Virus record (IMG/VR): IMGVR_UViG_3300037423_000960
Coordinates: 9,473 to 73,472 of that record
Strand: one strand, 5' to 3'
DNA: 64,000 bases
DNA from: a virus
Lineage: Duplodnaviria > Caudoviricetes
This document shows positions 19,212 through 55,463 of the stretch, piece after piece (position 1 is the first letter of the stretch; each line of letters begins with the position of its first letter). Under the pieces are notes generated by a model, which worked only from the letters and a program-made list of their open reading frames with translations, ran no database searches and had not been told where the DNA came from. The position numbers were made by a program, and so were the translations under genes.

Positions 19212-20105
19212 TCAGGGGACTATAGGCTTTGCCTTACGCCAGTCGTAGCCGGAGCGTGGACGACCCTCGCCATTCTTCACACGGAGATACTTGTCCAGTT
19301 CGCACAGAGAGAACTGAACATCGGTGACTCCGTAGTGAACACCAATCTCAGGCATGTAGTCCTTGAACGCACGATCCATGCTGAGACGACCGAGAAGAGC
19401 CTGCATCTTGTGCTGAGCCCTCTGCTGAGGCATCCCGGCCTGCGTCGGACGATCGTGAAGACGATTGAGACCGCGGATAGCTCCGGGGCCAGCCGGTGAC
19501 CACGTCAGCTTGTCGGTAGCATTCTCGAGCACAGGCGTCAGCATCATGTCCAGTGCGATCTCCTTCGCCATGAAGGGACCAATTCCGGGCATTCCCTGCA
19601 AGAGCTCACAGACCTCCTGCCACCGATTCGTGCGCTCAGCCATGCCGATGACAGAGTCCAGACGCATCCGAAACGGAGTGAGAAACTGCGACACGACGAC
19701 GATCTGCTTAGGATCTGTGCTGCCCGCGTTCGTTATGATGTACGCTCCGGTGAAGACTTTCTTCCCGGCAGCGAGACGCTCGCCGGCGCGACGTATGAGA
19801 AAATCTGGGTTCCACTCGTATTGAAAACCAACGTCTTCTAGAAACTCAATGCTGCCGAAGTAACGCGCGATGGCACAGTTGAGTGCCATGACTTGTTTCG
19901 GAACATTTCCACGATTAGGATTATACCAATTCCGGATCAGCCACTGCGTAGTGCGATCGTGCTTGCGGAGAATATTTGTGAACTTGTAGCGCGAGAGAAT
20001 TGGATCTGTGGTCCAGGGACCTGGCTCACCTGCAACTCTCTTCTGCCGGATAGCTTCGCGCTCGTTCAGGTAGTGAACGAAAGTCTCGTAGATCTCTTGG
20101 TTCAT
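19212..20105 (-). CDS. 5-hydroxymethyl-dU DNA kinase (aGPT-Pplase1 / 5-HMUDK family)
   Basis: EREAIRQKR, PWTTDPILSRYKFTNILRKHDRTT, GIGPFMAKEI, GPGAIRGLNRL and DVQFSLCELDKY. Confidence 0.85.
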   Translation of the reverse strand: MNQEIYETFVHYLNEREAIRQKRVAGEPGPWTTDPILSRYKFTNILRKHDRTTQWLIRNWYNPNRGNVPKQVMALNCAIARYFGSIEFLEDVGFQYEWNPDFLIRRAGERLAAGKKVFTGAYIITNAGSTDPKQIVVVSQFLTPFRMRLDSVIGMAERTNRWQEVCELLQGMPGIGPFMAKEIALDMMLTPVLENATDKLTWSPAGPGAIRGLNRLHDRPTQAGMPQQRAQHKMQALLGRLSMDRAFKDYMPEIGVHYGVTDVQFSLCELDKYLRVKNGEGRPRSGYDWRKAKPIVP

Positions 20106-20125
20106 GGCGGCTCTCCGCTGAGGAC

Positions 20126-20161
20126 GAAGAAAAGGGCGGACGCCTCACGACGCCCGCCCTT
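20126..20161 (-). terminator. Rho-independent terminator
   Basis: Minus strand AAGGGCGGGCGTCGTGAGGCGTCCGCCCTT followed by TTCTT. Confidence 0.7.
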
Positions 20162-20185
20162 CTGTAAGGACAGAGGCGTCGAGTA

Positions 20186-20833
20186 TTACTCGACCATGCC
20201 ACCGTCGCTCCCGGTCGCCGCGGTCGGCTCACCGGTGTCCTGCGACTCCGCTTCCTGCAGACGACTGAAGCCAGCCTGCGTCAGGAAGACGTAGATGCTG
20301 TCCTCGCGCGACTCGGTGCGGACGAGACCGTCCTTCTCGAGCTTGTCGATCTGCTTCTCGACCGTCTTGGTCTTCTTCCCGGTCTCCGTGACGAAGTCCT
20401 GGACGGTGATCTGCGTGTTGTCGATGTCGCCGGCGTCCGAGACTTCCCCGCGCTCACGGATGAAGTTCAGCGCGTCGAGCTCCGCCTGCTGAGCCTTGGT
20501 CAGCTTCTTGGGCTTGCTGGCCTTGGCCTTCGGCTCCGGAGCCGCGATCGAGCTGTACTCCTCAGCCTTGTCCGCCTCGTTGACCAGATGACCGTAGCGC
20601 TGAACTGCGTCGCGAACATAGGCACGGATGTACGAGGGTCCGTAGCCCTGCGACTTCTTCGGCGAGAAGTTCTCGAGGAGATGCTTCTCCAGATCGGCGT
20701 AGCTGACGCCGTCGCCGCCGGGAGCGCCGCCGAGTTCGTTCGCTGCCTGACGCATCGCGTCGACGACAGTGCCTGCACGGACAGCCGTGGGACCGACCCA
20801 CAGCTTCTTTTCGGTATCCAATTTCGTAGACAT
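20186..20833 (-). CDS. Probable DNA-binding protein with two winged-helix-like regions and a Lys/Ala linker
   Basis: PEPKAKASKPKKLTKA linker; C-terminal VQDFVTETGKKTKTVEKQIDKLEKDGLVRTESREDSIYVFLT is wHTH-like; host-like codon usage. Confidence 0.55.
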   Translation of the reverse strand: MSTKLDTEKKLWVGPTAVRAGTVVDAMRQAANELGGAPGGDGVSYADLEKHLLENFSPKKSQGYGPSYIRAYVRDAVQRYGHLVNEADKAEEYSSIAAPEPKAKASKPKKLTKAQQAELDALNFIRERGEVSDAGDIDNTQITVQDFVTETGKKTKTVEKQIDKLEKDGLVRTESREDSIYVFLTQAGFSRLQEAESQDTGEPTAATGSDGGMVE

Positions 20834-20861
20834 GACTTCTTGATGCTCCTTCTAGCAGGGA

Positions 20862-21725
20862 CTAGAACGCCTGCTCGTCTCCGGGCTCGTCGTCGGGATG
20901 CTCCATGTCACCCTTGACTTCGCCGGCATCGATCCGCTTACGCAGCTCGCTGGCGGCAGTGAAAATCTCGCGCCCGTTTGCGAGATCCTTCACCTTCGGC
21001 CCCTCCTCGATGAGGAACCCGTACCACGAACCCTTGTCGTTGGACTCTGGAATCGTGGTAATCTTGTACGAGTAGAACCACATCGCAGGACGGAAGAGAG
21101 TCCCGGCCTTGGCGTGGCCTACCGGAAATCGCTCCATGCGATTGTTGATCGTGGTTGCCCACCCGCGACCCTTGCGAGCCTGAACCCCAGAGAAGTTCAG
21201 AACCGCTGCCTCCCATTCCTGCGTCTCCGGATTCACCAGGACGACGAAGTACTGAAGAGCATCGGTGAGCTCATTGCCCTGCTCGTCGTAGCGCTTACCC
21301 TTGTCGTCCGGCGTCGCCGCGTTGAACTTCGAGGGATCGTCACCCATGTCGTAGGCAGGACCGGCGTTATTCGGTCGCCACGCCATGTATCGGTGACTAA
21401 AGCCGACCGGAACGGCGAGAAAACCCGTCTCGCCGTTGATGAGCTTCCGCGTCGCAGAGTTGACGAACATGCCCTGACCGGCGTTAGGAAGAAACTTAGC
21501 GTGACCACGCTGAAGCTCCTTCGAGAGCGCTTGCAGGATGCGGACATACGGGATGAGAAAGTCGGACTGCTGGAAATCGTCCAGACCCGCACCGGCTTCT
21601 GCGAAGAAGTCGTCGTCCGCCGCAACCAAATCGGTTGACTCGTTCTTGGTCGTTGTGAGATTGGTACCGCCAGCCGCAGGTGCCTCACTCTTTTCTTCTT
21701 CAGCTTTCTTCTTTGCTTCGGCCAT
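20862..21725 (-). CDS. Probable single-stranded DNA-binding protein
   Basis: GAGLDDFQQSDFLIPYVRILQALS, NDKGSWYGF and acidic tail ending in F; replication-module context. Confidence 0.65.
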   Translation of the reverse strand: MAEAKKKAEEEKSEAPAAGGTNLTTTKNESTDLVAADDDFFAEAGAGLDDFQQSDFLIPYVRILQALSKELQRGHAKFLPNAGQGMFVNSATRKLINGETGFLAVPVGFSHRYMAWRPNNAGPAYDMGDDPSKFNAATPDDKGKRYDEQGNELTDALQYFVVLVNPETQEWEAAVLNFSGVQARKGRGWATTINNRMERFPVGHAKAGTLFRPAMWFYSYKITTIPESNDKGSWYGFLIEEGPKVKDLANGREIFTAASELRKRIDAGEVKGDMEHPDDEPGDEQAF

Positions 21726-21765
21726 TAGGCTCTCCTCTGTTCACTGGCTTGCCACCAGACGCTTC

Positions 21766-21793
21766 ACTATAAGCGCGTTAACTCACAACGCAA
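21766..21793 (-). promoter_or_regulatory. Sigma70-like promoter
   Basis: CTTGCGT-N16-TATAGT upstream of the SSB gene. Confidence 0.5.
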
Positions 21794-21825
21794 GGGATAT
21801 TTTACTCTAGAATAACTCGGCAGAC

Positions 21826-22392
21826 TTACTTAATGACTGCCTTATCGCCAAACCAGACTCCCCACTTCTCAAGTGGGAGCATGACGCCATTCTGAATCTG
21901 CTCGCGCGCGAATGCCATAAAGGTTTGAGGGTGCACGTCCAGCTTGATGGTAGGGTCGAAGCCCATCTTGGCGAGCGTTTCACGTGCTAACTCGGCCTGC
22001 TTCGTGTCACCCTTGCTGAACTGAAGGGCTAGATTACGCTTGATAATATCGCTATGTCCGTGCGAGTCGAGCCACTCGTAGGCTTGCTCCTTGGACTGTG
22101 GCGGAATTGATCCGACGACGTATTTGGTTGAGACCTTGAGACCCTCCAGCGTAGTGATCTCGCGGACGCCTGCCTGCTTCAGCAACTCGGGCAACTTCTG
22201 TGTCTCTATCTCGACCTTCCGGCGAGTGAGATCTTTGATTTTATTCTGTAGCTCGGCGATGTCTCCCTCGAGAAGACGATACTCTCTCGCGAGATTGGTA
22301 ATATGAGCCTTAAAGCGCTCAGAGCCGGTACTGGTGTCGGCCTCCTCGAAGAAGTCTACGTCACTCTGCTCCGTCTGCGTCTCTTCGACCAT
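21826..22392 (-). CDS. Conserved phage replication-module protein (coiled coil)
   Basis: LPELLKQAG...TLEGLKV, AYEWLDSHGHSDIIK and VHPQTFMAFAREQ. Confidence 0.65.
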   Translation of the reverse strand: MVEETQTEQSDVDFFEEADTSTGSERFKAHITNLAREYRLLEGDIAELQNKIKDLTRRKVEIETQKLPELLKQAGVREITTLEGLKVSTKYVVGSIPPQSKEQAYEWLDSHGHSDIIKRNLALQFSKGDTKQAELARETLAKMGFDPTIKLDVHPQTFMAFAREQIQNGVMLPLEKWGVWFGDKAVIK

Positions 22393-22757
22393 TAGTCTTG
22401 TTCCTCTTCCAGCCTGACTTCTACGGGAGAATAGAAACCCGTTACGGGTTCTCCATGCTTTGTATTGCGGTTTTTCTCAAAGCGCAAGTAGCGGAACTTC
22501 GTGATACCTAGGTCAAGCATCACCATGCCGGTCACAATGGCGCTGAGAGGATCTCCACCCGCCCAGACGATGAAGTCCGTTCGGGGATCAAACTCCGAGA
22601 GTGCTCTCCTGAGACGCTCTATGGAGAGCTCAGGATTAGCCGAGGTCCGATCTCCAGCAGAGAGCACAAAGCGGATCTCGCCATATACGGCGGCGGGGCT
22701 GACGTCGGGCTGAAACCGGACGGCCTGTAGGACAAAGACCTTACTCGTCATCGGCAA
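22392..22757 (-). CDS. Hypothetical protein
   Basis: Translationally coupled; VYGEIRFVL and DFIVWAGGDP. Confidence 0.6.
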   Translation of the reverse strand: MPMTSKVFVLQAVRFQPDVSPAAVYGEIRFVLSAGDRTSANPELSIERLRRALSEFDPRTDFIVWAGGDPLSAIVTGMVMLDLGITKFRYLRFEKNRNTKHGEPVTGFYSPVEVRLEEEQD

Positions 22758-25661: not shown

Positions 25662-25698
25662 TTCAGAGTGATGCCTCCCGCATCGCAGAGATCACAGG

Positions 25699-25941: not shown

Positions 25942-25950
25942 GAGATCCTC

Positions 25951-26313: not shown

Positions 26314-26323
26314 CGTGAGCTCC

Positions 26324-27768: not shown

Positions 27769-30700
27769 TTACGGTTTGTCCACGTTATGAGTGAGAATCA
27801 GCTTGCCAGCTTTTCTTCCGGCCGCGAAGGTAGCTCCACCGGCACGAATGTAGCAGACAGGGATGTTACCGGCCTCAGAAGCGCGAGCGACTGACCACTC
27901 GAAGTCGCCTTCGACTAGAGTGGGAAGCTCGTGATCTTTCAGATCTGCCGGGTAGATAGTGTCACCGTTTCTCAGTGTGAGTGGTGTAGACTGGGATAGT
28001 AGCAAGACGCAACCGTTTGCTGTGATGATCTCGTAACCATACTCTATCTGAGTAGAGTTCCCGAGAACCTCTGTCCAACTCTTAGCGCTGTTGCGATCTT
28101 CGCCTAGTGACAGGACATAATCTCCAGCGACGACGTCTTTCGCTCTCTTCAGACCCTCCTGAGTCTCGACCCACGAGTCCTCGTGTACGCAACCGCCTCC
28201 TCCGCCTATGCCGCCGCCGCCTCCTGTCCCCGAAGATGGGAAGAAGACAGAACAGTTACCAAGATAGACGCGAGCGTCGCTCTGATATATTAGGCTCGTA
28301 TCAGTCGTGGCCTTGAGACCACCCGAGGGAGTTCCTCCAGCGTAGTTAGGATCGTCGACATAGAGATAGTAGTTGATGGTCGTATTGCCGGTACCTGTCA
28401 CCCCCACGCTCATTGAGTTGTAGGCGATACTGATGGAGCCGATGTAGCTCGTGCTGGCTCCGATAGTGATAGTGGCAGTAGCAGGAGATCCAGCCGCCGC
28501 CGTGTACGAAACAGCACCTGTGTTCTTGTACCGAAGATTTTGAGAAGCGATTTGAGGAAGCTGCCTCTGATCGCCGACACGAACACCCGTTCCGGGAGTG
28601 CTGAGAAGAAGCGAGGACAGCGTAGCCTCGTCCGTGAACGGAGTGTCACCAGAGATCACAGCGTTGGACGCGAACTTAATTCTCCGCCATCCTATGACTT
28701 GACCAGAAGTAATGTTGACGCTACCGACCTTTGGACGAATTCTCGCGCTCAGGGCACCAGAGGGTGAAGTGTACGCCTGAGTGTACCTTGTCCAGCTAGC
28801 CCCGATCGTAGCTGACATGTTAGCGTCGTTGGAGAGGAAAACAGTACCAGCGGCATCCGAGTACCAAATAACGTCAAAGCCGACCATGCCGGAAGTAGCA
28901 CCCGCGGCATGAACCTCTCCTTGAAGCTGATAGCTAGAAGAGGGCAAGACAGGGATGACGTCTGAGAGAGCTGCTGCGGTCAAACCTGTCTGCGGACCAG
29001 AGATGTAGACATAAGGCGCAATGGAGCCGATTCCGGAGAACGCGAATCCCACAGGCCAGGAGAATCCTAGAGCCTTGTTGGACGCATCACGGAGTTTAAG
29101 ACTTCCGTTGAATAGAAGGTTAGCAGAACCTGTGAACACGTTCTCTGGTGTGCGAGGATCCGTTGCAAACGGTCCTCCACCGAGACCTCCGATTGTGACA
29201 GTGCCGCCGCCAGCACCAGAGAGAACGCCCCCTGCGGAGATGCTGACTGCAGAGTTCTTGACGTTTGCGTCGGACAACGCAGACAGGAAGCTGTCGTAGA
29301 GATTAGTTCCGGCACGAGCACCATACGAAGAGAGAGTCCTCCATACTCCGCCGATGCGAACTTTATGTGCCAGAAGTGCGCTCGAAGTGTCTCCCCAGAT
29401 GTAGCCGTCTTCTACTGCACCAGGATCTGTCGGACTATATAGAGTGCGGTTACGAGTGGCGAAGAGATCTCCCTGGAACCCTAGGCCGCCGATAGTGACT
29501 GAGCCACCACCGGCACCTGAGAGAACACCTGCCGAGGAAATGCTGATGGCCGAGTTCTTAACAGTGGAGTCACTGAGAACAGTGTTGCCGCTGTCACGAA
29601 GATAGGTCCCTCCGAGAAGCAGAGTACTCTGAGTGCCGACAGCACCGCCGCCGAGACCAGAATAGGTGACGGTACCGCCTCCAGCACCAGAGAGAACGCC
29701 TGCGGAAGAGATCGACACAGCCGAGTTTAGAACCTGAGTGTCTGTGACGACAGAGCCGGAGCTGTTCTGAACGGTGGAACCGAGAGTCGGCTGAGTAGTA
29801 GACTGCGAATACGTCAAGTTCGTGTACGAAGCTCCGGCATTAAGTAGGAGAGCTTTCGGGTAGAAGCTCTGCGCCGGGAGTACTCCGGAGATGTACTGAG
29901 TTCTGAAGACACCGTCAGTGTAGACCCGGATGCCAATCTCATCGTACACCAGACTCAAATTCTGGGGAGTGGTACCAATACCGAAGCCGACTGGTCCGGC
30001 GACACTAACTCCATTCTTGTAGATCTGGACCTGCTGATTCAAGGTCGAGCTGTAGGTGTAGACGACTGCGTACAGCATCGTGGCTAGAGTGAAGTTCGTA
30101 GCGTCGTCGTCCAGAGCGAGGATTGTGCTTTTACCATTCACGTTGTACGGAGTACACGAGACGGTCTGCGGTCCAGTGATAACTCGGCCTACGACACCAC
30201 CTGCATAGGCATCACCAGATCCGGCTGGCTTGCTGAGAGTATTGCCGCTCAGTGAGAAAGTCGTACCGATACCAGACCAGAGACCGGTATATCCCATGCC
30301 TCCGAGAGTAGCCGAGCCTCCGCCAGCACCCGAGAGGGAGCCGTCAGGATTAATCGTAATCGCGCTATTGACGATGGTGGAGGAGACCACCACTGAGCCG
30401 CCGTTAGTGAGATTGACACCAACCTGAGCACCGACTGTGGAGACCGTATCACCCCAGGAAGATCCGTTCCAGCGAAGAAGTGCCTGTGTAGTCGGGTTAT
30501 ACCAAAGATCACCTACGGCGAAGGTTCCGGAAGGAGTAGTAGTGCTGACGTAGGTTTTAATCTTCCCGTCCGCCGTTGCCTGAGCTCCAGCCGCAGCAGT
30601 CAAGGCGTCTACGATACGAGTGTCCGAGAACGCCGCCCACGTCGATCCAGTCCAGCGATACGTCTTATTCGCATCGTCAGTGTCGACCCAGACGTCGTTG

Positions 30701-32532
30701 GTCTGCATCCCGGAAGTTGGAGCGGCGGTCTGAAAGAAGAAGGTTGCCCCGCTGGAACTATACGATCCTAGAATCCCCTGCGCGTAAGCATCGTTTCCGT
30801 GCTGAACTACTAGACGCTTGCGCTGCTGAATTCCGTTCGCGTCTGTAGCTTTGACCTCGATCCACTGAACTAACACGGAAGAGGATACGTTAGCGATCGG
30901 TATCGTATTCCCGCCAGTGATTGTGACGTTGTTACCGAGATTGTCTACAGCAGTTATGGTGATGGGTGCCGTGGTGTTCGTGCCTGTAGCAGTCGCCACA
31001 ACAGACTGACCCGCTGGAGAAGGTTGACCGTTGTCGTCAAAGTAGAAACGATCAGCGCTGAGACTCAGATCAATCTTGTTAAGAGGGGAGACTGCATCCT
31101 TTACTACCGTGAAGACCTCGTCCCAAGCAAACTCTCCGATATTCACCCTAAGCACGGCGGAGGCGGGTGAGCTCGGCGGAGCCGTAACCGTGATGTTACC
31201 ACTCTGATCTATTGCAATCCAGGACTCACCATTCGGCACCCGGAAGGTCGCGATGCCAAGATCGTTGACCTCGGTGTTGTTCAGGAAGACATGATATTTA
31301 CCAGCACCCGAATAATCGGGAGTTGCGACAGACGTATCCACATAGAGATACATCTTGTCGAGATAGGCGTTAAGCAACTGCTTCGGAATCGTGAAGTCAG
31401 AAGGCGGCTGGACGGTAGGATTCTGGGCATAGTCGACCTTGACGCGAAACAAAGGCACCGGAGATGGAGCCTTACCAAGACTCATGAGATCTTCCTGTCG
31501 GATGGTCGCGACAGGAGTGCTGAACTTAAAGATTTTGAAGCTGATGAGACCAGATCTTGTGACGTACCAGAAGCCGAAGACAGCGCTGGCGAGGGTCTCC
31601 ATCAGTTCGTCGTACTGAAGCTCGGGTTCTGGAAAATACAGGCCCTCAAAGGCCCACGGAGCATCCGTAGAAGCCTGAGTAAAGGCAGAGACGTCTAGCT
31701 CTCCGCTGCTGAGACCAAGCCGACTAGTGAGGAGTTGCTTCGCTAACTCGGGAATGTTCGTGACTGTTCCGAAAGCTCCCACGGCATCTACTGTGATCGT
31801 ACCAGCCGGTGGAGCTCCGAGCCGAATGAATCCACTAGCCTTGCACGTTCCGTAGTAGCCGGGAGGAATTGTCGCAGCGATCAAAGAAGCATACGAGGCG
31901 TAGTCCTGCTGGAACTTTATCGCGTTTGCACGATCATAGACAGCATCAACCGAAGATAAGACACCGTCGTGAATTTGACCAGTGAGAAGTGCTTGATCAA
32001 CCCAGACCGGAGAGAGATTACGTGCCTTGCCGAAGAGTAGAGGCTTGAATTTGTTCTGAAGGTCAATGCCTCCCTCAGCCCCTCCTGTCCCAGCGTACTT
32101 GTTATTCTGGACGGGCTTAGTCAGCTTGTAGCTATTATCTCTCAGGGTCAGCGTTAGGCTGTTTGTGTCAGTGGTAATCTCTGTCGTGGAGCCTACGAAC
32201 TCTGTAACGAAGGAGGTGTAGGAGGATCCCAACTTCCCACGCTTGATAGTAAGAGGCCGTGCATCCCACGCATAATCAAGAAGATAGTCGAAACGACCAT
32301 CTACGTTGTTGATTGTGGCGGAACCCAGAGAAACACTGGTCTGGCCTGGGACGTTCTCCTCAAAGATAGAGGTCTCGTGTGTGAACGCTTGACTGAGACG
32401 AACGGGATACTTATTCCCGGTGCTCTGGAAGTCGGCCTCAGTGAGAAGACCGTCCGAGAAAAAGACATTCTCAGCTACGCCGCTCGTGTTAAGCGGTTGA
32501 GCCTCGAGAAGATATACAGTCTCACCACTCAT
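27769..32532 (-). CDS. Large tail-tip / central fibre protein (1587 aa) with C-terminal Hint domain
   Basis: Follows tape measure; hub-like N-terminus (KPLLFGKARNLSPV); WVDTDDANKTYRW and LWYNP fibre motifs; GGGG-CVHEDSWV...THN-VDKP end. Confidence 0.8.
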   Translation of the reverse strand: MSGETVYLLEAQPLNTSGVAENVFFSDGLLTEADFQSTGNKYPVRLSQAFTHETSIFEENVPGQTSVSLGSATINNVDGRFDYLLDYAWDARPLTIKRGKLGSSYTSFVTEFVGSTTEITTDTNSLTLTLRDNSYKLTKPVQNNKYAGTGGAEGGIDLQNKFKPLLFGKARNLSPVWVDQALLTGQIHDGVLSSVDAVYDRANAIKFQQDYASYASLIAATIPPGYYGTCKASGFIRLGAPPAGTITVDAVGAFGTVTNIPELAKQLLTSRLGLSSGELDVSAFTQASTDAPWAFEGLYFPEPELQYDELMETLASAVFGFWYVTRSGLISFKIFKFSTPVATIRQEDLMSLGKAPSPVPLFRVKVDYAQNPTVQPPSDFTIPKQLLNAYLDKMYLYVDTSVATPDYSGAGKYHVFLNNTEVNDLGIATFRVPNGESWIAIDQSGNITVTAPPSSPASAVLRVNIGEFAWDEVFTVVKDAVSPLNKIDLSLSADRFYFDDNGQPSPAGQSVVATATGTNTTAPITITAVDNLGNNVTITGGNTIPIANVSSSVLVQWIEVKATDANGIQQRKRLVVQHGNDAYAQGILGSYSSSGATFFFQTAAPTSGMQTNDVWVDTDDANKTYRWTGSTWAAFSDTRIVDALTAAAGAQATADGKIKTYVSTTTPSGTFAVGDLWYNPTTQALLRWNGSSWGDTVSTVGAQVGVNLTNGGSVVVSSTIVNSAITINPDGSLSGAGGGSATLGGMGYTGLWSGIGTTFSLSGNTLSKPAGSGDAYAGGVVGRVITGPQTVSCTPYNVNGKSTILALDDDATNFTLATMLYAVVYTYSSTLNQQVQIYKNGVSVAGPVGFGIGTTPQNLSLVYDEIGIRVYTDGVFRTQYISGVLPAQSFYPKALLLNAGASYTNLTYSQSTTQPTLGSTVQNSSGSVVTDTQVLNSAVSISSAGVLSGAGGGTVTYSGLGGGAVGTQSTLLLGGTYLRDSGNTVLSDSTVKNSAISISSAGVLSGAGGGSVTIGGLGFQGDLFATRNRTLYSPTDPGAVEDGYIWGDTSSALLAHKVRIGGVWRTLSSYGARAGTNLYDSFLSALSDANVKNSAVSISAGGVLSGAGGGTVTIGGLGGGPFATDPRTPENVFTGSANLLFNGSLKLRDASNKALGFSWPVGFAFSGIGSIAPYVYISGPQTGLTAAALSDVIPVLPSSSYQLQGEVHAAGATSGMVGFDVIWYSDAAGTVFLSNDANMSATIGASWTRYTQAYTSPSGALSARIRPKVGSVNITSGQVIGWRRIKFASNAVISGDTPFTDEATLSSLLLSTPGTGVRVGDQRQLPQIASQNLRYKNTGAVSYTAAAGSPATATITIGASTSYIGSISIAYNSMSVGVTGTGNTTINYYLYVDDPNYAGGTPSGGLKATTDTSLIYQSDARVYLGNCSVFFPSSGTGGGGGIGGGGGCVHEDSWVETQEGLKRAKDVVAGDYVLSLGEDRNSAKSWTEVLGNSTQIEYGYEIITANGCVLLLSQSTPLTLRNGDTIYPADLKDHELPTLVEGDFEWSVARASEAGNIPVCYIRAGGATFAAGRKAGKLILTHNVDKP
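27784..28191 (-). other. Hint (intein-like) domain of about 136 aa
   Basis: Begins at Cys after a Gly-rich linker; LLSQSTP block B-like segment; ends ILTHN followed by only 4 residues. Confidence 0.7.
29190..30400 (-). repeat. Four dispersed copies of a ~30-aa repeat in the tail fibre
   Basis: NSA[IV][ST]I[NS]xxG[SV]LSGAGGG[ST][AV]TxxG[ML]G occurs four times; boundaries approximate. Confidence 0.8.
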
Positions 32533-49060: not shown

Positions 49061-49335
49061 TATCCTCGTCTTTGCTGCGGCTCGGCCGCGGAGGTGGAGC
49101 TCCGTAGGGCTCTACTCACACGTCGATACAAAAGATCTGAGGCCTTGGCAAGCCCCCGCCGCAAAAAACTTTTGGGACTAGCCTAGGAAGCCCTCAGACC
49201 CGCGCTTGAGCGCAGGCGCGCTGCCTTGGCTGTGGCGGGGCGCTGGCTGGCGCGGCGTGTTCTGAGAGCGGTTGCAGAGGGTCAAGACCAGCACTATGAG
49301 AAGTAGGGTGTAGAGTGCGGGAAGCACTCGGCCCA

Positions 49336-49587
49336 CTACGGCTCTGCTCGGTTACGGCGCTCTCGGCGCATGGTGTCCGGTACTAGCTCACCGTCTCGGA
49401 GGAGAAGCCGTGGAGGACGCCGCACTTCGGTCACAGTGACCTCGCGTTTCTCGCAGTGGAGCGTCTCTCCAGGCCTCAGAGTCTTCAGCTTCTTACGTCG
49501 GCCCTCTCGGGTGAGATACGTGATCTGGAGATCACGGTTCCCGTCACGAGGATTTGTAATGTGGAACCCCTCACTGGACACGACCAA
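49336..49587 (-). CDS. Small basic hypothetical protein between scaffold and MCP
   Basis: 83 aa, Arg-rich; TTG start with AGAAGG upstream. Confidence 0.4.
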   Translation of the reverse strand: MVVSSEGFHITNPRDGNRDLQITYLTREGRRKKLKTLRPGETLHCEKREVTVTEVRRPPRLLLRDGELVPDTMRRERRNRAEP

Positions 49588-49638
49588 CGCCTTCTAGGAG
49601 GAGCCGCCCGACGAGGAGCTAGGCGGCTCCCGCAGTCG

Positions 49639-50427: not shown

Positions 50428-50492
50428 TTTCAGTCTCCTAGCAAGGTCGACCCCGCCGACCAAGATCACGAACCCCGCCCGTGACGGATCTC

Positions 50493-50522
50493 TCTATAGC
50501 AGGGTGACGCGCGGCATGACAA
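50493..50522 (-). promoter_or_regulatory. Sigma70-like promoter
   Basis: CTTGTCA-N18-TATAGA upstream of the scaffold gene. Confidence 0.55.
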
Positions 50523-50527
50523 GCGCT

Positions 50528-50947
50528 TTATTTGCGCGCGTTTACGTGAGCCACGAAGCGCTGAAGATGCAGCACAGCCTCCTCCTCGAGACAGGCCAGC
50601 ATGTAATCACGCTCGGACAGCTTCTCTCCACGCGCTACTGCGAGCGACCTAGAGGAGTCGCTCATCCAATCCGCCAACCACTCGTGAAACTTGTCGTGAT
50701 CAGCGTTCATCTGCCTGAGTGTGGGATATCCCATCCACTCGGCCAGTGCGCGCTGGTGATCGTAGAACATTGGCTCTAGCTCGCTCACAGGAAAGAACCA
50801 CCGTCCTCCACCCTCGACGTCAGTGACTCCAGCGGTCCAGACATCCTCAGCGTCTAGAGTCAGAGTGAGAACCCTGAACTGCATCCCAGGCCAGTCCGGA
50901 TGCGAGACCCTCTGTCCGTGGGAGAGAGGAAGCCTTACCGAGCGCAC
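50528..50947 (-). CDS. Hypothetical protein
   Basis: 139-aa ORF coupled to upstream stop. Confidence 0.5.
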   Translation of the reverse strand: MRSVRLPLSHGQRVSHPDWPGMQFRVLTLTLDAEDVWTAGVTDVEGGGRWFFPVSELEPMFYDHQRALAEWMGYPTLRQMNADHDKFHEWLADWMSDSSRSLAVARGEKLSERDYMLACLEEEAVLHLQRFVAHVNARK

Positions 50948-51456
50948 TAGCTATCGTCACCAGGATCCGGAGTCTTGTCTAGAAGTACGACCTTGTCGAC
51001 CATGTCGCTCGGAAGATTCACGTCATCGGCTATGATGCGCCCGTCGTGTCCTGAGAGATCGGCCTTCTTCGGGAAGTTCGGATCCGCCGGACCAGAGCTG
51101 AACATGATCTTCGCCTTGGTGAGAATCCAGTCTCCCAGGACGTCGAGCAGAAGGACCGCGGTCCAACCCACGCCGAGACCTACGAAGGCAGAAGTGCTGA
51201 CGCTGAACTTACGATCCCAGATGAGGACGCCTGCGACGAGCATCGCCACTAGGGTAAGCGGAAGCGTTTCGTTCCACTTCTGTGGGCGATTCGTCGCTCG
51301 ATATTCCTTGTTTACGAATACCCATCTCGCCAGCGCTACGCCCAGGAGACCTACGAATAAAGAGATCATTCCGCTCGGCACTCCCTGTCCGGCCGCGACT
51401 ACTCCTGAGGAAGCCGCGACTGCGTGATAGTCGAGATTGGTGCGAGCGGTGACCAT
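50947..51456 (-). CDS. Membrane protein (3 predicted TM segments), holin-like
   Basis: ISLFVGLLGVALARWVFV, LPLTLVAMLVAGVLIW and AFVGLGVGWTAVLLL. Confidence 0.65.
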   Translation of the reverse strand: MVTARTNLDYHAVAASSGVVAAGQGVPSGMISLFVGLLGVALARWVFVNKEYRATNRPQKWNETLPLTLVAMLVAGVLIWDRKFSVSTSAFVGLGVGWTAVLLLDVLGDWILTKAKIMFSSGPADPNFPKKADLSGHDGRIIADDVNLPSDMVDKVVLLDKTPDPGDDS

Positions 51457-51461
51457 CTAGG

Positions 51462-51962
51462 TCACCCGTAGTACGTGATCGCTGCTGCGATTAGAAGAAC
51501 CGCCATCCCGATCTTGAGAGGGCGCTTGAGCTGTTCCTTGGTCGGCCACAGATGAATCGGCGGTGGTCTCTTCTCTAACTGGAAGTGCATCATCGGCATA
51601 CCGAGATAACCAGCGAGCCACGCGAGACTCCACGGGATGAACGAGAACATGTCGAGCCAGTGATCTACCTCGAAGGCCATGAATCTCGCCTGCGGCGAGA
51701 GTGTGCGCCACAACGCGAAGCGGAAGATGTCCGGCCCCACTCTGAGAAGGACACTGATCCCCACGAGCAGAAGAATCACCCTCAGTACCGTGACGGGATG
51801 CTTGATGCCGAAGGGTCTCTCGTACGCACCCCACGCGATGCGCCAGAACCACTCCAGTGTCAGCAGGGTGATCATCAGTAGCGAGAACAGCGTCATCATA
51901 TAGACTAGCGGCTGACCCTCGAAACCGGGCGGAACGTCTGTGACATAGTTCGCAAGCATCAT
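51462..51962 (-). CDS. Membrane protein (about 4 TM segments, 166 aa)
   Basis: True start MMLANY overlaps the portal stop (ATGA); hydrophobic segments. Confidence 0.65.
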   Translation of the reverse strand: MMLANYVTDVPPGFEGQPLVYMMTLFSLLMITLLTLEWFWRIAWGAYERPFGIKHPVTVLRVILLLVGISVLLRVGPDIFRFALWRTLSPQARFMAFEVDHWLDMFSFIPWSLAWLAGYLGMPMMHFQLEKRPPPIHLWPTKEQLKRPLKIGMAVLLIAAAITYYG

Positions 51963-53590
51963 CCCTCCGGCGGAGCGTTGCGTGGAGTCGGTGGCGCGTT
52001 GGCGGGCGACGGCTTCGGCTGCGGCCTCACTCCCGGCTGACTTCCGGCGGGACCGGTGTCCAGACCTCCCGAGGCTGGCGCGGCGGGAGGCTCGTACTGC
52101 TGATCCTTCTGTCCCATGAGCTTCTTGAAGTCCTCGAGCGTGTACTCGATCGGGATGACGCCGACCTCGCGAAGCGCGTAGTACATCACGTCCTCGGGGA
52201 TGTGACCACGCTCGCGCAGAGCCTGGAGTGCTCTCAGCTCGCGACCTGTGAGCTCGGAGCTGACGAACTCCTTGTTGAACTCCACGAGGACGCCGTGATC
52301 CTCTAGATCCGGCACCAGCCCCATGATGTCGCCCATGTACGCGACAGCGGTGGACATGGCGTAGTCGGCGGTGAGCGCGACGTCCATCAGCGTGGCCTCG
52401 TCGCCCGTCTCCATGAGCTGCCACGCCTCGGAGCTGAGCGCTGCTGCGCGACGCGTGGAGCTGATCAGACGCCCGCCCAGCGACTGCATCTGAAGCTGCT
52501 TGGAGTCCACCGCATTCTCGAGGAAGGTGAGCCCGTGACCTGTGAACTCCAACAACCAAGCCTTGGAGTTCTCCTCAAGCTCCCAGACGTTGCTCGGACC
52601 AACCGTGAGAGGACTCGGATCCGACAATCCGTTGGGAAGACCCGGCTCACCTCCTCCAGGACCGGAGGTGACGTAAGTCGGCATCCCCGCGTAGAATCGT
52701 CCGTGCTCCAGGTGCGCGGTGCTCTGGTAGTGCGAGATATTGATGGTGGCGATGTCCTCCAGCGGCGCGGGACCGATCTGATAGGACGTGTTCGTCGCGT
52801 TCACGAATACGAACGGAATGTAGTCGAGCTGCCTTCCGCCGCGAACCGAGATCGGCACCTGCCTGATCATTGGCTTGTCGGGATTAGCGTCGGTGATCGA
52901 GGGGCGAATCTCCGTCTGCGAGTAGACGAGCTTACCGTTCACCTCGTCCAGCCGGAGAACTCTAACCAGGAGCTGAGTCTCGGAGGCGTACTCCGTCGTC
53001 ATCTGCTCCTGCTCGAGCAACACAACGCGATCGACGATCTCCCGATCCTGCCACTCCCGAGTGCGCCACGAGAAGACGTTCTCTGCGAGATAACCGGCGA
53101 GATACGGCGACTGCCAGTTGGAACCCTTGAAGTCCGCCAACACACCGAATCGTCCTGTGAGGAGTACCTCGTGAACGAGGGTCCGGCAGAACTCTGCGAA
53201 GGGCTTGGCGTCCTGCGTGATGCGCCCGAGCTTGATCTTGCTCTTCATCGCGTCTGGGAGAGTGATCTCGACAGGCTTGCGGAAGATCGAGCCCATGAGT
53301 CCGCGATGGGTGCGCCGCACGGCGTTGTAGAAGTAGGCTCTCCGACGATAGACGTCGTACTCGTCGGCCTTGTGAGCGGCTAGCTTTGGGAGGTAGGTCT
53401 CTCTCCCGGCCTTGATGGTAGCCTCGCCGTCGTAGCAGTCCCGGATGGTGGACCACATGTCGAATTTGTTGTAGTAGTCGGCGCTTACCGGAATCTCAAT
53501 GCCGGGAAGAGCGAGCGAGTATGGGATGTGGGGCCTCGGCGTACCGATCCTCTGTGTACGAGCGTAGGCGGAGGTCGCTGGATCTGGCAC
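51959..53590 (-). CDS. Portal protein (DUF4055 / SPP1-like)
   Basis: RDCYDGEATIK...YLP, YRRRAYFYNAVRRT, IPFVFVN and PLEDIATINISHYQSTAHLEHG. Confidence 0.9.
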   Translation of the reverse strand: MPDPATSAYARTQRIGTPRPHIPYSLALPGIEIPVSADYYNKFDMWSTIRDCYDGEATIKAGRETYLPKLAAHKADEYDVYRRRAYFYNAVRRTHRGLMGSIFRKPVEITLPDAMKSKIKLGRITQDAKPFAEFCRTLVHEVLLTGRFGVLADFKGSNWQSPYLAGYLAENVFSWRTREWQDREIVDRVVLLEQEQMTTEYASETQLLVRVLRLDEVNGKLVYSQTEIRPSITDANPDKPMIRQVPISVRGGRQLDYIPFVFVNATNTSYQIGPAPLEDIATINISHYQSTAHLEHGRFYAGMPTYVTSGPGGGEPGLPNGLSDPSPLTVGPSNVWELEENSKAWLLEFTGHGLTFLENAVDSKQLQMQSLGGRLISSTRRAAALSSEAWQLMETGDEATLMDVALTADYAMSTAVAYMGDIMGLVPDLEDHGVLVEFNKEFVSSELTGRELRALQALRERGHIPEDVMYYALREVGVIPIEYTLEDFKKLMGQKDQQYEPPAAPASGGLDTGPAGSQPGVRPQPKPSPANAPPTPRNAPPEG

Positions 53591-53677
53591 GTGGGAGGAT
53601 TCCTGCCGAGTGTATATGTTCGGAGGTGGAGTAGCACGGATGTGGGCGGAGGGACAAGTGACTACTGCGCGGCGGTG

Positions 53678-54253
53678 CTAGGATCCCCAACGATCTGCCA
53701 TCGCCTCTGCGATGCCTGGAAAGAAGCGTGAGCGAATCTTCCAGCGGTCGATAGATTCTGGGGTTGGGTCGCGACCGAGCTCGTCGCGATTGACGTAGGG
53801 TGGAGGGATGTAGCGGGTGTGACGGAGAGGGTTCAGGTTCTTGAGGCGCAGAGTGAATGTCTTGGCGTAGGGCTCGCCGAACTGCCAGGGATGAATCGTC
53901 TGATGATGAGGGATGTTCGTGAATCGTCGTATGACTCCGGGCGGATTCTCTATGCAGATGCGCTGGATGGGAGCGTTCCAGAGGGCGAGGAAGAATTGGA
54001 TGGCGTCGCGGGTCTTGGCGATGCGGGTCGGGTCCTTGAGACGACGATGGTATCCGGCCGAGCAGAGATAGGTGCACGGCGGATGGGCGATCATGAGATC
54101 CCAGGAGTCGTTGAGATGGTTGAGGACGTCGTTCTGGATGTGGGGTCCGGGAGACTCCGTCGGTGACAGGTCACAGCTCCAGGCGTCGTGGCCTCTGGAG
54201 AGGAAGGCGTCGCGAACTATGCCGGAGAACTCACAAGCTACGAGGATTCGCAT
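53678..54253 (-). CDS. Short phage DNA cytosine-methyltransferase-like protein (191 aa)
   Basis: MRILVACEFSG, WSCDL, DLMIAHPPCTYL, ICIENP, QFGEP and RSRFFPGIAEAMA; start at ATG 54253. Confidence 0.7.
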   Translation of the reverse strand: MRILVACEFSGIVRDAFLSRGHDAWSCDLSPTESPGPHIQNDVLNHLNDSWDLMIAHPPCTYLCSAGYHRRLKDPTRIAKTRDAIQFFLALWNAPIQRICIENPPGVIRRFTNIPHHQTIHPWQFGEPYAKTFTLRLKNLNPLRHTRYIPPPYVNRDELGRDPTPESIDRWKIRSRFFPGIAEAMADRWGS

Positions 54254-54363
54254 CCGACAGCGGTAGCACGGCGAGAAGAGACTGACAATATATTTCGAAT
54301 TTTCGAGTCGAGAATTTAAGATTGCGCTCACTGAGGCCCGCGTGGGTGGGCGGGCGTATATGG

Positions 54364-54387
54364 GGCCAAGGTACCATAGCGCCTTGG
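54364..54387 (+). repeat. Left boundary direct repeat and hairpin
   Basis: GGCCAAGGTACCA-TAG-CGCCTTGG; can fold GGCCAAGG/CCTTGGCC. Confidence 0.75.
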
Positions 54388-54426
54388 CCGTAGCCGCCCG
54401 CAAACGCCTGCTAGGGCGCAAAGCAA

Positions 54427-54455
54427 TGCCGCCCGCTACCATGTAGCGGGCGGCA
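54427..54455 (-). terminator. Terminator-like hairpin ending the island operon
   Basis: TGCCGCCCGCTAC-CAT-GTAGCGGGCGGCA (13-bp stem), followed by TTGCTTT on minus strand. Confidence 0.6.
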
Positions 54456-54478
54456 CGTTGGCATGGCTTGGCGCGCGT

Positions 54479-54712
54479 TTAGCGGGCGCGCGGCCAATGC
54501 GGCGCAACGCCGTTAGCAATGCGCGCCCATTGCCGCGCCAAGTAAGCGGCGCGCAGCTTTGGGCTATAATTGGCAAGCTGCGCGGCCATGCTGCGCGCTT
54601 GGCCGTAGCGGCGCGGCGCATAGGGCGCGGGCGCATAGTGCCAAAGGGCGGCGCGCATGTAACTGGCTTGGCGCGGCATGGCGGCGGGTTGGGCTTGGGT
54701 TGGCGTAAACAT
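54479..54712 (-). CDS. Island ORF2: 77-aa basic protein with no Asp or Glu
   Basis: Shares the leader CCTAACGCAAAGG with ORF1 (54723-54735 vs 55313-55325). Confidence 0.55.
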   Translation of the reverse strand: MFTPTQAQPAAMPRQASYMRAALWHYAPAPYAPRRYGQARSMAAQLANYSPKLRAAYLARQWARIANGVAPHWPRAR

Positions 54713-54744
54713 AGGTTTGTTACCTTTGCGTTAGGTGGCGGGTT

Positions 54745-54773
54745 GGCGCGGCGGCAACCATTGCCGCCGCGCC
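54745..54773. other. 13-bp hairpin between the two island ORFs
   Basis: GGCGCGGCGGCAA-CCA-TTGCCGCCGCGCC. Confidence 0.65.
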
Positions 54774-54780
54774 CGTTAGG

Positions 54781-55302
54781 CTAGGCTAGCGCCTTGCTAG
54801 CTAGGCCATGCTGTGGGCGGCAAAGCCCGTTAACGTAACCTTGCGCCCATTTGGCCGCTGTTGCGCTGTTAGGCGTTACGTGCACGCCTAGCGCCTTGGT
54901 TGCGCCCATTGCGGCCATAAGCTGCGGGTTGCCAAGTATGGCGGCAACAATGGCCGCGCCCGTTGCGCTAGTGCCGCCGTTGGCTGCGTTGGCAAGCGCA
55001 ACGGCTGTTAAACCCATAGCCGTTGCTTGGCCGTTGCGCCCAATGCCGCCCGCTACGCCAACAGCCGCCTTGCCTAGCGCCGTTAGCGTAAAGGTAGCGT
55101 TGGCAAAGCTAGGCGTTAGGCTGTTAACAGCCGCGCCGTAGCGCTTGGCGCTAGCTGGCGCATTGCCAAGCTTTGCCGCAACCGCTGGCGCGGCGGCAAT
55201 GCCCGCGCGCCCAATAATAGCGGCGGCGCGCAGCATGGGCGCCACCTTTACGGGCGCGGCATTGTTGGCGGTGTTGGCGGTGTTGTTGTTGTTACGTGCC
55301 AT
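54781..55302 (-). CDS. Island ORF1: 173-aa Ala/Gly/Asn-rich basic protein with no Asp or Glu
   Basis: ATG preceded by AAAGGC instead of the AGGAG used elsewhere; longest ORF in the island. Confidence 0.75.
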   Translation of the reverse strand: MARNNNNTANTANNAAPVKVAPMLRAAAIIGRAGIAAAPAVAAKLGNAPASAKRYGAAVNSLTPSFANATFTLTALGKAAVGVAGGIGRNGQATAMGLTAVALANAANGGTSATGAAIVAAILGNPQLMAAMGATKALGVHVTPNSATAAKWAQGYVNGLCRPQHGLASKALA

Positions 55303-55463
55303 GTTGTGTTTGCCTTTGCGTTAGGCCGCTTGGCGGCATTGCCAGCGGCGGCATTACATATGCGCGCAGCATGGCAACATGGCAACATGGCATTTGCGCC
55401 AGGCGCGCCCGCCAAGGCGCTTTTGCGCCAAACTGAGTGTTTTACGCGCCAAGGCGTTACAGA

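Follow-up and report, generated by a model that had tools for sequence, protein, structure and literature searches.

A 1.1-kb expression unit without GA or TC in a phage genome with predicted thymidine-modification genes

Here, we describe a 1,102-bp island without GA or TC dinucleotides in a 64,000-nucleotide stretch of DNA (the window; positions 9,473 to 73,472 of IMG/VR record IMGVR_UViG_3300037423_000960) from a virus of the class Caudoviricetes. The island holds two small genes and their signals, and predicted thymidine-modification genes lie elsewhere in the window. The features, in window coordinates, are:

16832..17869, minus strand: thymidylate-synthase-fold enzyme, candidate dUMP hydroxymethylase
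18092..18904, minus strand: TAGT-like glycosyltransferase (PF20691; phrog_842)
19212..20105, minus strand: PF18723 'HMUDK_hel' protein (profile match, E = 1.3e-45), homologue of M6 gp55
54334..55435, no strand: GA/TC-free island (gap scan; the only one in this genome)
54364..54391, minus strand: hairpin GGCCAAGG...CCTTGGCC, within the island, ~90 nt 3' of ORF2
54479..54712, minus strand: ORF2, 77 aa, Arg-rich, no Asp or Glu
54723..54735, minus strand: leader CCTAACGCAAAGG, identical copy, 5' of ORF2
54781..55302, minus strand: ORF1, 173 aa, no Asp or Glu, very high pI
55313..55325, minus strand: leader CCTAACGCAAAGG with a GA-free Shine-Dalgarno sequence (AAGG), 5' of ORF1
55357..55385, minus strand: putative promoter-like element (-35 TTGCCA, 17-nt spacer, CATATG)
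55464..55484, minus strand: second copy of GGCCAAGGTACCA...CGCCTTGG, on the upstream side, 29 bp outside the island
55511..55608, minus strand: GATC cluster, beginning 76 bp from the island edge
55590-55608, minus strand: unique motif TTGACGGGATGGATCTGAT, within the GATC cluster region

A dinucleotide gap scan of the window bears out the original prediction of a GA/TC-free island, no GA or TC starting on either strand from 54334 to 55434. The runner-up GA/TC gap in the window is 54 bp (log10 P = -87.5), and GA/TC is the most frequent dinucleotide class, at 16.7% of positions. This is the single GA/TC-free island in the whole 73.5-kb genome, in which no other dinucleotide class has an outlier gap. 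G+C content is 65% in the island versus ~60% in the flanks; AA (o/e 1.9), TT (o/e 1.7), GC and TA are enriched within it, and TG/CA is not depleted. The remaining DNA, which had been described as rich in TC/GA, is so in this genome (o/e 1.34), but the description does not extend to other island-bearing genomes, where the value ranges from 0.72 to 1.37. Because GA and TC are absent, the island proteins are without Asp and Glu.

The signals around the two genes keep to the same restriction. The -35 hexamer TTGCCA is a GA-free variant of TTGACA, and the Shine-Dalgarno sequence is AAGG instead of GGAG. The promoter-like element did not pass a strict consensus promoter scan; similar elements are found in other lineages at -83 to -99 from the ATG, and the duplication of the leader ahead of each ORF is also found in other lineages. 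The hairpin, which is not followed by a T-run, is a possible 3' end of the unit, and L057, G017 and G021 have hairpins of their own 3' of the island ORF. With a promoter-like element, two ribosome sites, two genes and a 3' hairpin, the island is a complete, self-contained expression unit. Direct repeats of 13 bp occur at a spacing of 1,100 bp, and the flanking repeat GGCCAAGGTACCA...CGCCTTGG is specific to this genome and not kept in other lineages. The GATC cluster (10 GATC per 200 bp) is the densest in the genome, and the motif TTGACGGGATGGATCTGAT is kept in G003, L064 and L070. In the ORF1 clade the island is located immediately upstream of the portal gene.

About 90 homologues of ORF1 (80 + 8), without Asp or Glu, were found, and their alignment shows 22 invariant residues. 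The islands of these homologues are GA/TC-free at 37-83% protein identity, with bounds unchanged relative to the genes; one of them, a perfect 1,070-bp island, lies in a complete circular assembly (G003). In the distant relatives P0087 and P0088 the ban is loosened about threefold and is not absolute. ORF2 is kept in other lineages at 36-78% identity. An AF2 model of ORF1 (pLDDT 89, pTM 0.83) gave no Foldseek match against PDB and BFVD, and structure comparison (VIA Z <= 4.3) returned winged-helix domains for the most part. ORF1 is a real, conserved globular protein, the C-terminal half of which, as modelled, weakly resembles winged-helix domains. Strong purifying selection keeps the double-stranded step 5'-TC-3'/5'-GA-3' out of the island.

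It is at the level of DNA, and not of protein or RNA, that the ban operates. When ORF1 and ORF2 are back-translated with the genome's codon usage, 42 (27-59) and 17 (7-30) GA/TC are expected against an observed 0, and the constraint therefore extends to the choice of codons and to their junctions. The ban covers the promoter-like element and continues for at least 18-90 bp on its upstream side, GA and TC are excluded equally strictly on both strands, and in the relaxed ORF1 relatives the two reappear in equal numbers. In phages that avoid restriction sites or other short motifs, selection strips a short DNA word from both strands while genes stay intact. In the island, by contrast, the word is a bare dinucleotide, the genome's commonest, its removal is total but within one 1.1-kb unit, the proteins are reshaped, and allowed palindromes are enriched (GCGC at 47/kb vs 5.7/kb; allowed 6-mer palindromes at 22.7/kb vs 5.8/kb). 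General restriction avoidance, tested as a cause of the ban, does not account for the island. CCGG is depleted inside islands (7 observed vs ~32 expected) and not in the rest of the same genomes (o/e 0.93-1.07), which fits an island that is the only unprotected part of the genome.

The ORF at 19212-20105 had been taken for a 5-hmdU DNA kinase (5-HMUDK). The match to PF18723 stands, but the product is a homologue of M6 gp55 (35% identity) and an aG/PT-PPlase-type protein, not a P-loop kinase. The verified P-loop 5-hmdU DNA kinase is M6 gp54, and gp55 was dispensable in the M6 reconstitution (PMC8989533, PMC5889632). Searches of the module and of the genome gave neither a gp54 homologue nor a Walker A motif or PF13671 domain, and a gp51-type amino-acid:DNA transferase was likewise undetectable. 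The window phage shares with M6 and PhiJL001 the gene order TS-fold gene, PF18723 aG/PT-PPlase gene, HD hydrolase, DUF3310 and polA, but those two phages have no dinucleotide-free island. In Pseudomonas phage M6, Salmonella phage ViI, Delftia phage phiW-14 and Bacillus phage SP10, thymidine is hypermodified via 5-hmdU; just a fraction of T is modified, in contexts inferred to be TG/TC (PMC5889632, PMC8989533, PMC6449724). Unlike these four phages, for which no modification-free island is described in the literature searched, the window phage has a TAGT-like glycosyltransferase in place of a detectable P-loop 5-HMUDK or gp51-type transferase. The PF18723-glycosyltransferase-TS module is present in every sufficiently covered ORF1 lineage (G000, G001, G003, G011, and contigs of 89,147 bp and 91,050 bp). 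The modification genes common to all island genomes are just those for the PF18723 protein and the TS-like enzyme. The glycosyltransferase was rejected as cause of the ban, since its distribution does not follow that of the island: G021, G017 and G024 have an island but no such gene, and genomes without an island do carry it.

Co-occurrence of islands with the clade of the 19212-20105 protein was surveyed in 33 further PF18723-bearing phage genomes (1.72 Mb) and 19 PF18723-negative control records (0.87 Mb). GA/TC-free islands of 539-844 bp (4.9-11x the chance maximum) are present in 6/33 of the former, a set selected for PF18723, and in 0/19 controls, where the top ratio to the chance maximum is 1.45. 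Those six genomes (G+C content 36-58%) hold four further cassettes, non-homologous and devoid of Asp and Glu, and in each case GA/TC is the dinucleotide that is absent. The predicted association is thus positive but statistically modest (Fisher p = 0.054 and 0.035; ~0.09 with G017 and G054 taken as one lineage). The other 27 of the 33 are island-less, M6 and PhiJL001 with the same PF18723-GT-TS module among them; consequently, the pathway by itself does not require an island, and a modification-free unit is no general need of PF18723 phages. Phages with hmdU-pathway genes account for each of the seven island lineages found, and the GA/TC ban recurs convergently in phages with PF18723 and predicted hydroxymethylase genes.

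The ban thus exists, acts on DNA, is conserved and recurs convergently. As its cause we tentatively favor, at somewhat less than an even chance, evasion of the phage's own modification of thymidine in the TC context, by which transcription of the unit would be protected. T would be replaced by 5-hmdU in these phages, and after replication 5-hmdU would be further modified only where C comes next, so that a unit without TC on either strand would stay free of bulky adduct whatever the rest of the genome carries. Conversion of 5-hmdU is known to occur 'in sequence-specific contexts' (PMC8989533), and specificity at the level of TC is documented for related T-modifying enzymes: resistant restriction sites indicate TG/TC contexts (PMC6449724), and a phage T-dioxygenase prefers NTC (PMC13229309). 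E. coli RNA polymerase transcribes hmU templates at ~350%, but phosphorylated or bulky hmU templates poorly (PMC6457204). The T of TC would be the modified site, and a kinase at 19212-20105 would not be the enzyme that sets the context. Besides the 27 island-less PF18723 genomes and the modest association, two observations count against escape from modification. Members of this clade have no detectable P-loop 5-hmdU kinase, and TG/CA is undepleted in the island although both TG and TC are inferred as contexts in M6, ViI and phiW-14.

It is unlikely, though far from negligible, that another agent reads TC/GA in DNA, such as a host defence, toxin or TC-specific nuclease, and that the unit encodes something whose expression has to continue despite damage elsewhere. 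Candidates include DarT-type thymidine ADP-ribosylation at TNTC and DddA-type TC-specific dsDNA cytosine deamination. Such an agent would fit a strand-symmetric ban that includes untranscribed DNA, islands that go with particular cassettes and not with the pathway (most PF18723 phages being without one), and the relaxation in P0087 and P0088, as expected if pressure differs by host. However, hmdU-pathway genes accompany seven of seven island lineages and no control has an island; damage at the ~10,000 remaining sites would kill the phage, so that sparing 1 kb would help only against non-lethal damage; the motifs known for DarT have 4 nt and are not a bare dinucleotide; and no counter-defence domain was recognised in the island proteins.

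The same escape from modification might instead serve terminase, keeping a packaging region (pac/cos, perhaps with a small-terminase-like gene) or the first-entering end near-normal, which we consider improbable. In G017, G054, G055 and G056 the island immediately precedes the large terminase gene in the same orientation, the usual terS/pac slot, and the distance to TerL is 2 kb in G021; in the window's clade, with its island just upstream of portal, TerL is ~48 kb away and has its own 167-aa upstream ORF. An intrinsic terminator separates island ORF and TerL in G017, which makes the unit autonomous and not a terS-terL operon. The island proteins are basic and 148-223 aa long, the C-terminal half of ORF1 is weakly like DNA-binding winged-helix domains, and no small terminase is recognisable in G000, but no likeness in sequence or fold to any terminase small subunit was found. 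A conserved unique motif and the GATC cluster abut the island; known pac sites, however, measure from tens to a few hundred bp and do not take up an entire promoter-to-terminator unit, and all 'terminal repeats' are 114-127-bp assembler overlaps and so no marker of physical genome ends.

Very unlikely is escape at the level of RNA, in which a lack of GA (and UC) would shield the mRNA from a defence or nuclease that targets RNA, for instance CmdT. The CmdTAC system ADP-ribosylates GA dinucleotides in mRNA (PMC11618068), to which GA-free mRNA would be immune, and the sense strand of both genes lacks GA, down to AAGG in place of GGAG. CmdTAC acts on single-stranded RNA, whereas the ban is symmetric on both DNA strands, includes the promoter-like element and DNA upstream of it, and relaxes for GA and TC equally; a strand-specific pattern limited to the transcript would be predicted. 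RNA-level attack was therefore rejected.

There is very little to be said for another target base, either C in TC (C5-methylation, with or without TET and glycosylation) or G in GA (7-deazaguanine). In G000 and G001 a small phrog_757 methyltransferase (PPC/ENP motif) is encoded next to the island on its downstream side, but G003 has no homologue of it despite its perfect island. A TET-associated-type glycosyltransferase is present, but is missing in G021, G017 and G024 as noted, and Tet_JBP was not found in a search whose control gave no match either. Phage CAjan resembles the island phages in that a dinucleotide including GA sets the site of hypermodification, with DpdA-dependent preQ0 insertion at GA and GGC (PMC7544227); DpdA/TGT and QueC, in contrast, are absent in all island genomes tested (5/5 records, with controls matched in 14/14 genomes). 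The neighbouring methyltransferase and deazaguanine insertion are thus largely refuted as causes. An unselected feature (the footprint of a TC-specific deaminase that locally mutated TC to TT and GA to AA, an insert of foreign or synthetic origin, or an artefact of assembly) would suit the enriched AA and TT and the 13-bp direct repeats, but is refuted by recurrence of the island across many independent assemblies (JGI, ENA, Logan, NCBI) at 37-83% identity, with G+C content above that of the flanks, conserved proteins with 22 invariant residues, a confidently modelled ORF1 and a flanking repeat that other lineages do not keep.

Order of entry, and not composition, defines leading early regions read by host RNA polymerase, namely the class I genes of T7 and the first-step-transfer region of T5. 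Like them, the island is small and autonomous, has host-type promoter signals and may have to function ahead of the remaining genome or apart from it, but it stands out by its composition. If the island is an escape from TC-context thymidine modification, transcription would be the process protected: the unit would stay readable to major-groove proteins, host sigma-70 RNA polymerase first, and expression of its two small basic proteins would be possible from incoming DNA that is fully modified, or at a late stage of infection.

In a dinucleotide census, GA/TC is the most frequent strand-symmetric class in the window (16.7% of positions), and no GA or TC starts between positions 54334 and 55434, leaving a gap of 1,102 bp (log10 P = -87.5 at the window's GA/TC frequency). 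The second-largest GA/TC gap in the window is 54 bp, outlier gaps are missing from all other dinucleotide classes, and this is the sole such island in the 73,472-bp IMG/VR record that contains the window (G000), which bears out the GA/TC-free island of the original prediction. Across ~480 kb of unrelated viral DNA, the longest GA/TC gap is 72 bp; a pattern scan with the leader 15-mer yielded chance matches only, which were reused as a control. The island has a GC content of 65%, with AA, TT, GC and TA over-represented, and no description of comparable cassettes was found in the searchable literature.

Parts of the GA/TC-free island (window 54334-55435)
55385-55357, minus strand: promoter-like element TTGCCA-N17-CATATG
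before ORF1, minus strand: 13-mer leader CCTAACGCAAAGG
55302-54781, minus strand: ORF1, 173 aa
before ORF2, minus strand: second copy of the 13-mer leader CCTAACGCAAAGG
54712-54479, minus strand: ORF2, 77 aa
54391-54364, minus strand: hairpin GGCCAAGG/CCTTGGCC

The expression signals are themselves built without GA, with a -35 box of TTGCCA rather than TTGACA and a Shine-Dalgarno sequence of AAGG rather than GGAG, and neither ORF1 nor ORF2 encodes a single Asp or Glu. Back-translated with genome codon usage, the two proteins would carry 42 (27-59) and 17 (7-30) GA/TC, respectively, and none is observed, so the ban acts on nucleotides beyond the missing acidic residues. GA and TC are banned equally strictly on both strands, and the ban takes in the 3' flank as well as the promoter-like element and 18-90 bp or more of the DNA that precedes it. 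Despite a flat codon-position GC signal, ORF1 is a real protein, with homologues in 80 clusters at 52-100% identity plus 8 representatives further away, 22 invariant residues in the alignment and an AlphaFold model of pLDDT 89 and pTM 0.83. It has no match in Pfam, PHROG or NCBIfam and its fold none by Foldseek in PDB or BFVD; the ESM Atlas returned nothing useful, and the C-terminal half gives weak winged-helix-like VIA matches (Z <= 4.3). ORF2 is 36-78% identical across lineages. The cultured-phage collection holds no close DNA relatives of the window and no ORF1 detectable by tblastn, and the portal protein as a single-protein query against IMG/VR found nothing.

The ban is conserved across the clade of phages and loci that carry ORF1, whose members are all metagenomic assemblies of uncultured phages. 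Asp is absent from 80/80 ORF1 homologues and Glu from 78/80, and four relatives at 37-45% identity (P0083-P0086) have neither. Wherever homologue DNA was fetched the island is present with its bounds kept relative to the genes, starting ~110-280 bp upstream of ORF1 and ending ~100-150 bp beyond ORF2, and the missing dinucleotide is GA/TC in every case.

GA/TC-free stretches in other members of the ORF1 clade (G, IMG/VR genome records; L, fetched loci)
G003: 1,070 bp
G001: 682 + 570 bp
G011 / L065: 821 + 393 bp
L071: 1,031 bp
L072: 1,064 bp
L064: 696 bp

P0088 (L066 10001-10486) and P0087 (L070 1004-1465), the remotest ORF1 relatives and both from short contigs, do carry a few acidic residues; in their islands GA/TC depletion is about threefold rather than absolute, with GA and TC returning in equal numbers. 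Outside the island, window positions 55511-55608 hold the genome's densest GATC cluster (10 in 200 bp; Poisson P ~3e-6 per window), which begins 76 bp beyond the upstream end of the island and overlaps a unique motif, TTGACGGGATGGATCTGAT, whose position is conserved in G003, L064 and L070. GATC is ~1.5-1.9x over-represented genome-wide in this clade. Candidate functions for the cluster and motif are a boundary element, a protein-binding array or a packaging/replication signal; a genome-wide promoter class was rejected for TTGACGGGATGGATCTGAT, given its single occurrence in the window.

The ORF at 19212-20105, originally labeled a 5-hmdU DNA kinase, proved to be a different kind of protein.

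Modification genes in the window
16832-21725, minus strand: thymidine-modification module
19212-20105, minus strand: PF18723 'HMUDK_hel' protein (E = 1.3e-45, 156 bits, cut-off 25, residues 4-279 of 297)

A 5-hmdU DNA kinase has a Walker A kinase domain homologous to M6 gp54, ViI gp67, phiW-14 gp37 or the N-terminal part of SP10 gp186. ORF 19212-20105 instead aligns with M6 ORF055 (gp55; 35% identity over 95% of length) and not with the P-loop kinase gp54, and its full-length PF18723 match above the curated cut-off places it in the aG/PT-PPlase family, so an ORF with a Pfam '5-hmdU DNA kinase' name is here a gp55-type protein. The Pfam name derives from SP10 gp186, where the PF18723 domain is fused to a kinase. 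The gene upstream (20186-20833) lacks a Walker A motif and does not resemble gp54, tblastn with M6 gp54 found nothing in G000, G001, G003, G011, G017, G024 or G054-G056, and PF13671 is absent from G000, G003 and G011 (controls matched 14/14). In M6, the verified kinase is the P-loop protein gp54, and gp55 is an aG/PT-PPlase-type paralogue with a DNA-glycosylase-like fold (PMC8989533, PMC5889632), dispensable for N-alpha-glycinylthymidine (N-alpha-GlyT) formation in vitro (PMC8989533). The RefSeq label of M6 gp54 (L100, NC_007809.1 41685-42248), 'terminase small subunit', is likely a propagated mis-annotation.

The clade's gene set comprises a thymidylate-synthase-fold gene (PF00303, E = 5e-20; phrog_5131, E = 3e-93), whose product is a candidate dUMP hydroxymethylase, the gp55-type protein and a TAGT-like glycosyltransferase, with no detectable canonical kinase; neither a P-loop 5-hmdU kinase nor a gp51-type amino-acid:DNA transferase was detected in the module. 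PhiJL001 gp19-gp24 likewise pairs a gp55-type PF18723 protein with a TAGT-like glycosyltransferase. T modification in the clade seems to do without the canonical kinase, and the make-up of the module suggests that glycosylated hmU is made by a non-canonical route.

A block of Pam3gp34-like, wHTH, PF18723, glycosyltransferase and thymidylate-synthase-fold genes is found in every ORF1 lineage with enough sequence, and ORF1 shares contigs of 113,990, 89,147, 91,050 and 91,337 bp with the PF18723 protein (contigs equated by length). Because the ORF1 lineages form one phage clade, probably with an alphaproteobacterial host, this co-occurrence is not independent evidence. The independent test used PF18723-bearing IMG/VR records at 31-80% identity; 31 of them, all outside the ORF1 clade, were fetched in full and joined by the cultured phages M6 and PhiJL001 (33 genomes, 1.72 Mb). 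None of the 33 has an ORF1 homologue, and six have GA/TC-free islands far above the chance maximum.

GA/TC-free islands in PF18723-bearing genomes outside the ORF1 clade
G021: 844 bp, 11x chance maximum
G055: 836 bp, 9.4x chance maximum
G054: 628 bp, 8.2x chance maximum
G056: 732 bp, 8.1x chance maximum
G017: 539 bp, 6.4x chance maximum
G024: 127 + 343 + 277 bp, 4.9x chance maximum

Each of the six islands, in genomes of 36-58% GC, combines a promoter-like element and hairpins or a terminator with a single Asp/Glu-free ORF of 148-223 aa whose product begins MA(K/N) or similar. These proteins represent four families (G017/G054/G056; G055; G021; G024), none of them detectably similar to another or to ORF1 (hhalign probability <1%); the structure model of family B is unusable (pLDDT 39). 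GA/TC-free islands have recurred convergently in phages that carry PF18723 and candidate hydroxymethylase genes. Among 19 PF18723-negative control records (870 kb), the GA/TC gaps reach at most 1.45x the chance maximum. Fisher's exact test gives p = 0.054 (6/33 versus 0/19), p = 0.035 with the ORF1 clade added, and, by our own arithmetic, p ~0.09 if G017 and G054 are treated as a single lineage. The co-occurrence of islands with this protein is positive but statistically modest, and 27/33 PF18723 genomes, including M6 and PhiJL001, have no island. Two further records, G009 and G012, were rejected as PF18723-positive, island-negative cases, being 100%-identical fragments of the G001 phage outside its island.

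Among ten dinucleotide classes in the PF18723 set, only GA/TC and one AA/TT stretch exceed 4.5x the chance maximum. The latter (G059 21853-22262; 410 bp, 5.1x) may be a low-complexity or repeat region, as may GC/GC-free stretches of 346 and 298 bp (G016 12410-12755 and G057 15746-16043; 3.2-3.5x) and one of ~260 bp free of CA/TG plus AA/TT (G033 30685-30964). PhiJL001 (AY576273.1) has a 1,351-bp TA-free stretch in its tape-measure gene (51409-52759; ~2.6x chance maximum), probably compositional, with TA already rare in that genome.

Given published data on TC contexts and on RNA polymerase, the original prediction is the simplest account of the sequence evidence. Thymidine modification by the phage itself would take TC as its context, and the island would be a unit that stays clear of it; we put this close to, but under, an even chance. 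In M6, ViI and phiW-14, the restriction sites that resist cutting indicate TG/TC (PMC6449724), and NTC is preferred by a phage T-dioxygenase (PMC13229309). Transcription by E. coli RNA polymerase reaches up to 350% on hmU templates, ~10% of that level on phosphorylated hmU templates, and hardly occurs on templates with bulky major-groove groups (PMC6457204). The modified site, the enzyme that sets its context and the purpose of the island are inferred, unlike the ban itself, its DNA-level nature, its conservation and its convergent recurrence, which are shown. The only modification genes common to all island genomes are those for the PF18723 protein and the thymidylate-synthase-like protein.

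A different DNA-level agent behind the ban is unlikely. Separately, several particular modification enzymes were considered as the agent. One gene adjoins the island:

53678-54256, minus strand: methyltransferase-like protein, 192 aa, phrog_757, with FSG, PPC and ENP motifs

This protein, apparently without a target-recognition domain and without Pfam, NCBIfam or PDB sequence matches, is encoded in G000 and G001 and not in G003 or G011. It is excluded as the agent because G003, a complete circular assembly (127-bp k-mer overlap), carries a perfect island, and its absence from G003 and G011 also removes a cytosine C5-methyltransferase/TET/glycosyltransferase route; Tet_JBP gave no match, but control genomes were silent too. 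Phage CAjan carries deazaguanine at GA (PMC7544227), whereas G000, G001, G003, G011 and G012 lack DpdA/TGT and QueC (PF01702, PF06508; controls 14/14), which excludes a modification of that type. The glycosyltransferase was rejected since its presence does not follow the islands across genomes.

Somewhat less probable than a different DNA-level agent is that the phage avoids its own TC-context modification for the sake of packaging, through a pac site or a small-terminase-like gene, rather than of transcription. A packaging-related purpose is raised by the position of the island directly upstream of the large terminase gene (TerL) and co-oriented with it in G017, G054, G055 and G056, where a small terminase (TerS) gene would be expected, and 2 kb from TerL in G021. 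The window's clade differs, in that the island precedes the portal gene and TerL lies elsewhere:

5377-7310, minus strand: large terminase gene region, beside a ribonucleotide reductase gene and ~48 kb from the portal
6807-7310, minus strand: 167-aa ORF overlapping the large terminase start, candidate small terminase

Against packaging also stands the intrinsic terminator that separates TerL from the island ORF in G017, and neither sequence nor fold supports a TerS assignment for the island protein (Pfam, PHROG, Foldseek PDB/BFVD; VIA Z <= 4.3). As to genome ends, the IMG/VR 'direct terminal repeats' of G003, G021, G026, G030, G032 and G033 are exact 114-127-bp overlaps, typical assembler k-mers, which mark circular assemblies and not physical ends.

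The remaining explanations take small shares. General restriction-site avoidance was rejected because the island has an excess of those 4- and 6-mer palindromes that remain allowed (GCGC, 47/kb versus 5.7/kb elsewhere; allowed 6-mers, 22.7/kb versus 5.8/kb). Only CCGG is depleted, about fivefold, in the islands of G000 (window 54334-55435), G001, G003 and G011 (7 observed versus ~32 expected), and outside them it occurs at the expected rate (o/e 0.93-1.07). This is the pattern expected if only the island is exposed to a CCGG-reading enzyme, and the loss may hint at restriction avoidance confined to one unprotected stretch, short of proof. CmdT is an mRNA-directed, GA-targeting agent (PMC11618068), and escape from CmdTAC defence would deplete the sense strand of the transcript only, whereas the ban covers both DNA strands, promoter-like DNA and the 3' flank, a pattern that speaks against both an mRNA-directed agent and a protein-level cause. 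Hypermutation or artefact is ruled out by GC content, conservation and recurrence.

Under a modification of thymine in a dinucleotide context, phages would have evolved 'modification-proof' mini-operons repeatedly and independently, as whole promoter-to-terminator units without that dinucleotide, at the price of two banned amino acids. The missing dinucleotide would then disclose, from sequence alone, which context an uncharacterised DNA-modification system recognises, and the genes in the islands, whose small, acid-free basic proteins belong to five unrelated families, may encode factors for start-up from, or packaging of, chemically masked DNA. Taken together these steps form a tentative proposal, which we put somewhat under an even chance. 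ORF1, with 173 aa and ~90 homologues nearly all without Asp or Glu, is an extreme case of a nucleotide ban reshaping a foldable protein. If the proposal is true, the longest dinucleotide-free stretch in a phage genome would predict its hypermodification context without chemistry, a context largely unknown even for studied thymidine-hypermodifying phages. It would also imply a need not described before, to keep some function on ordinary DNA inside a modified genome, for which the five families of small acid-free proteins would be candidates.
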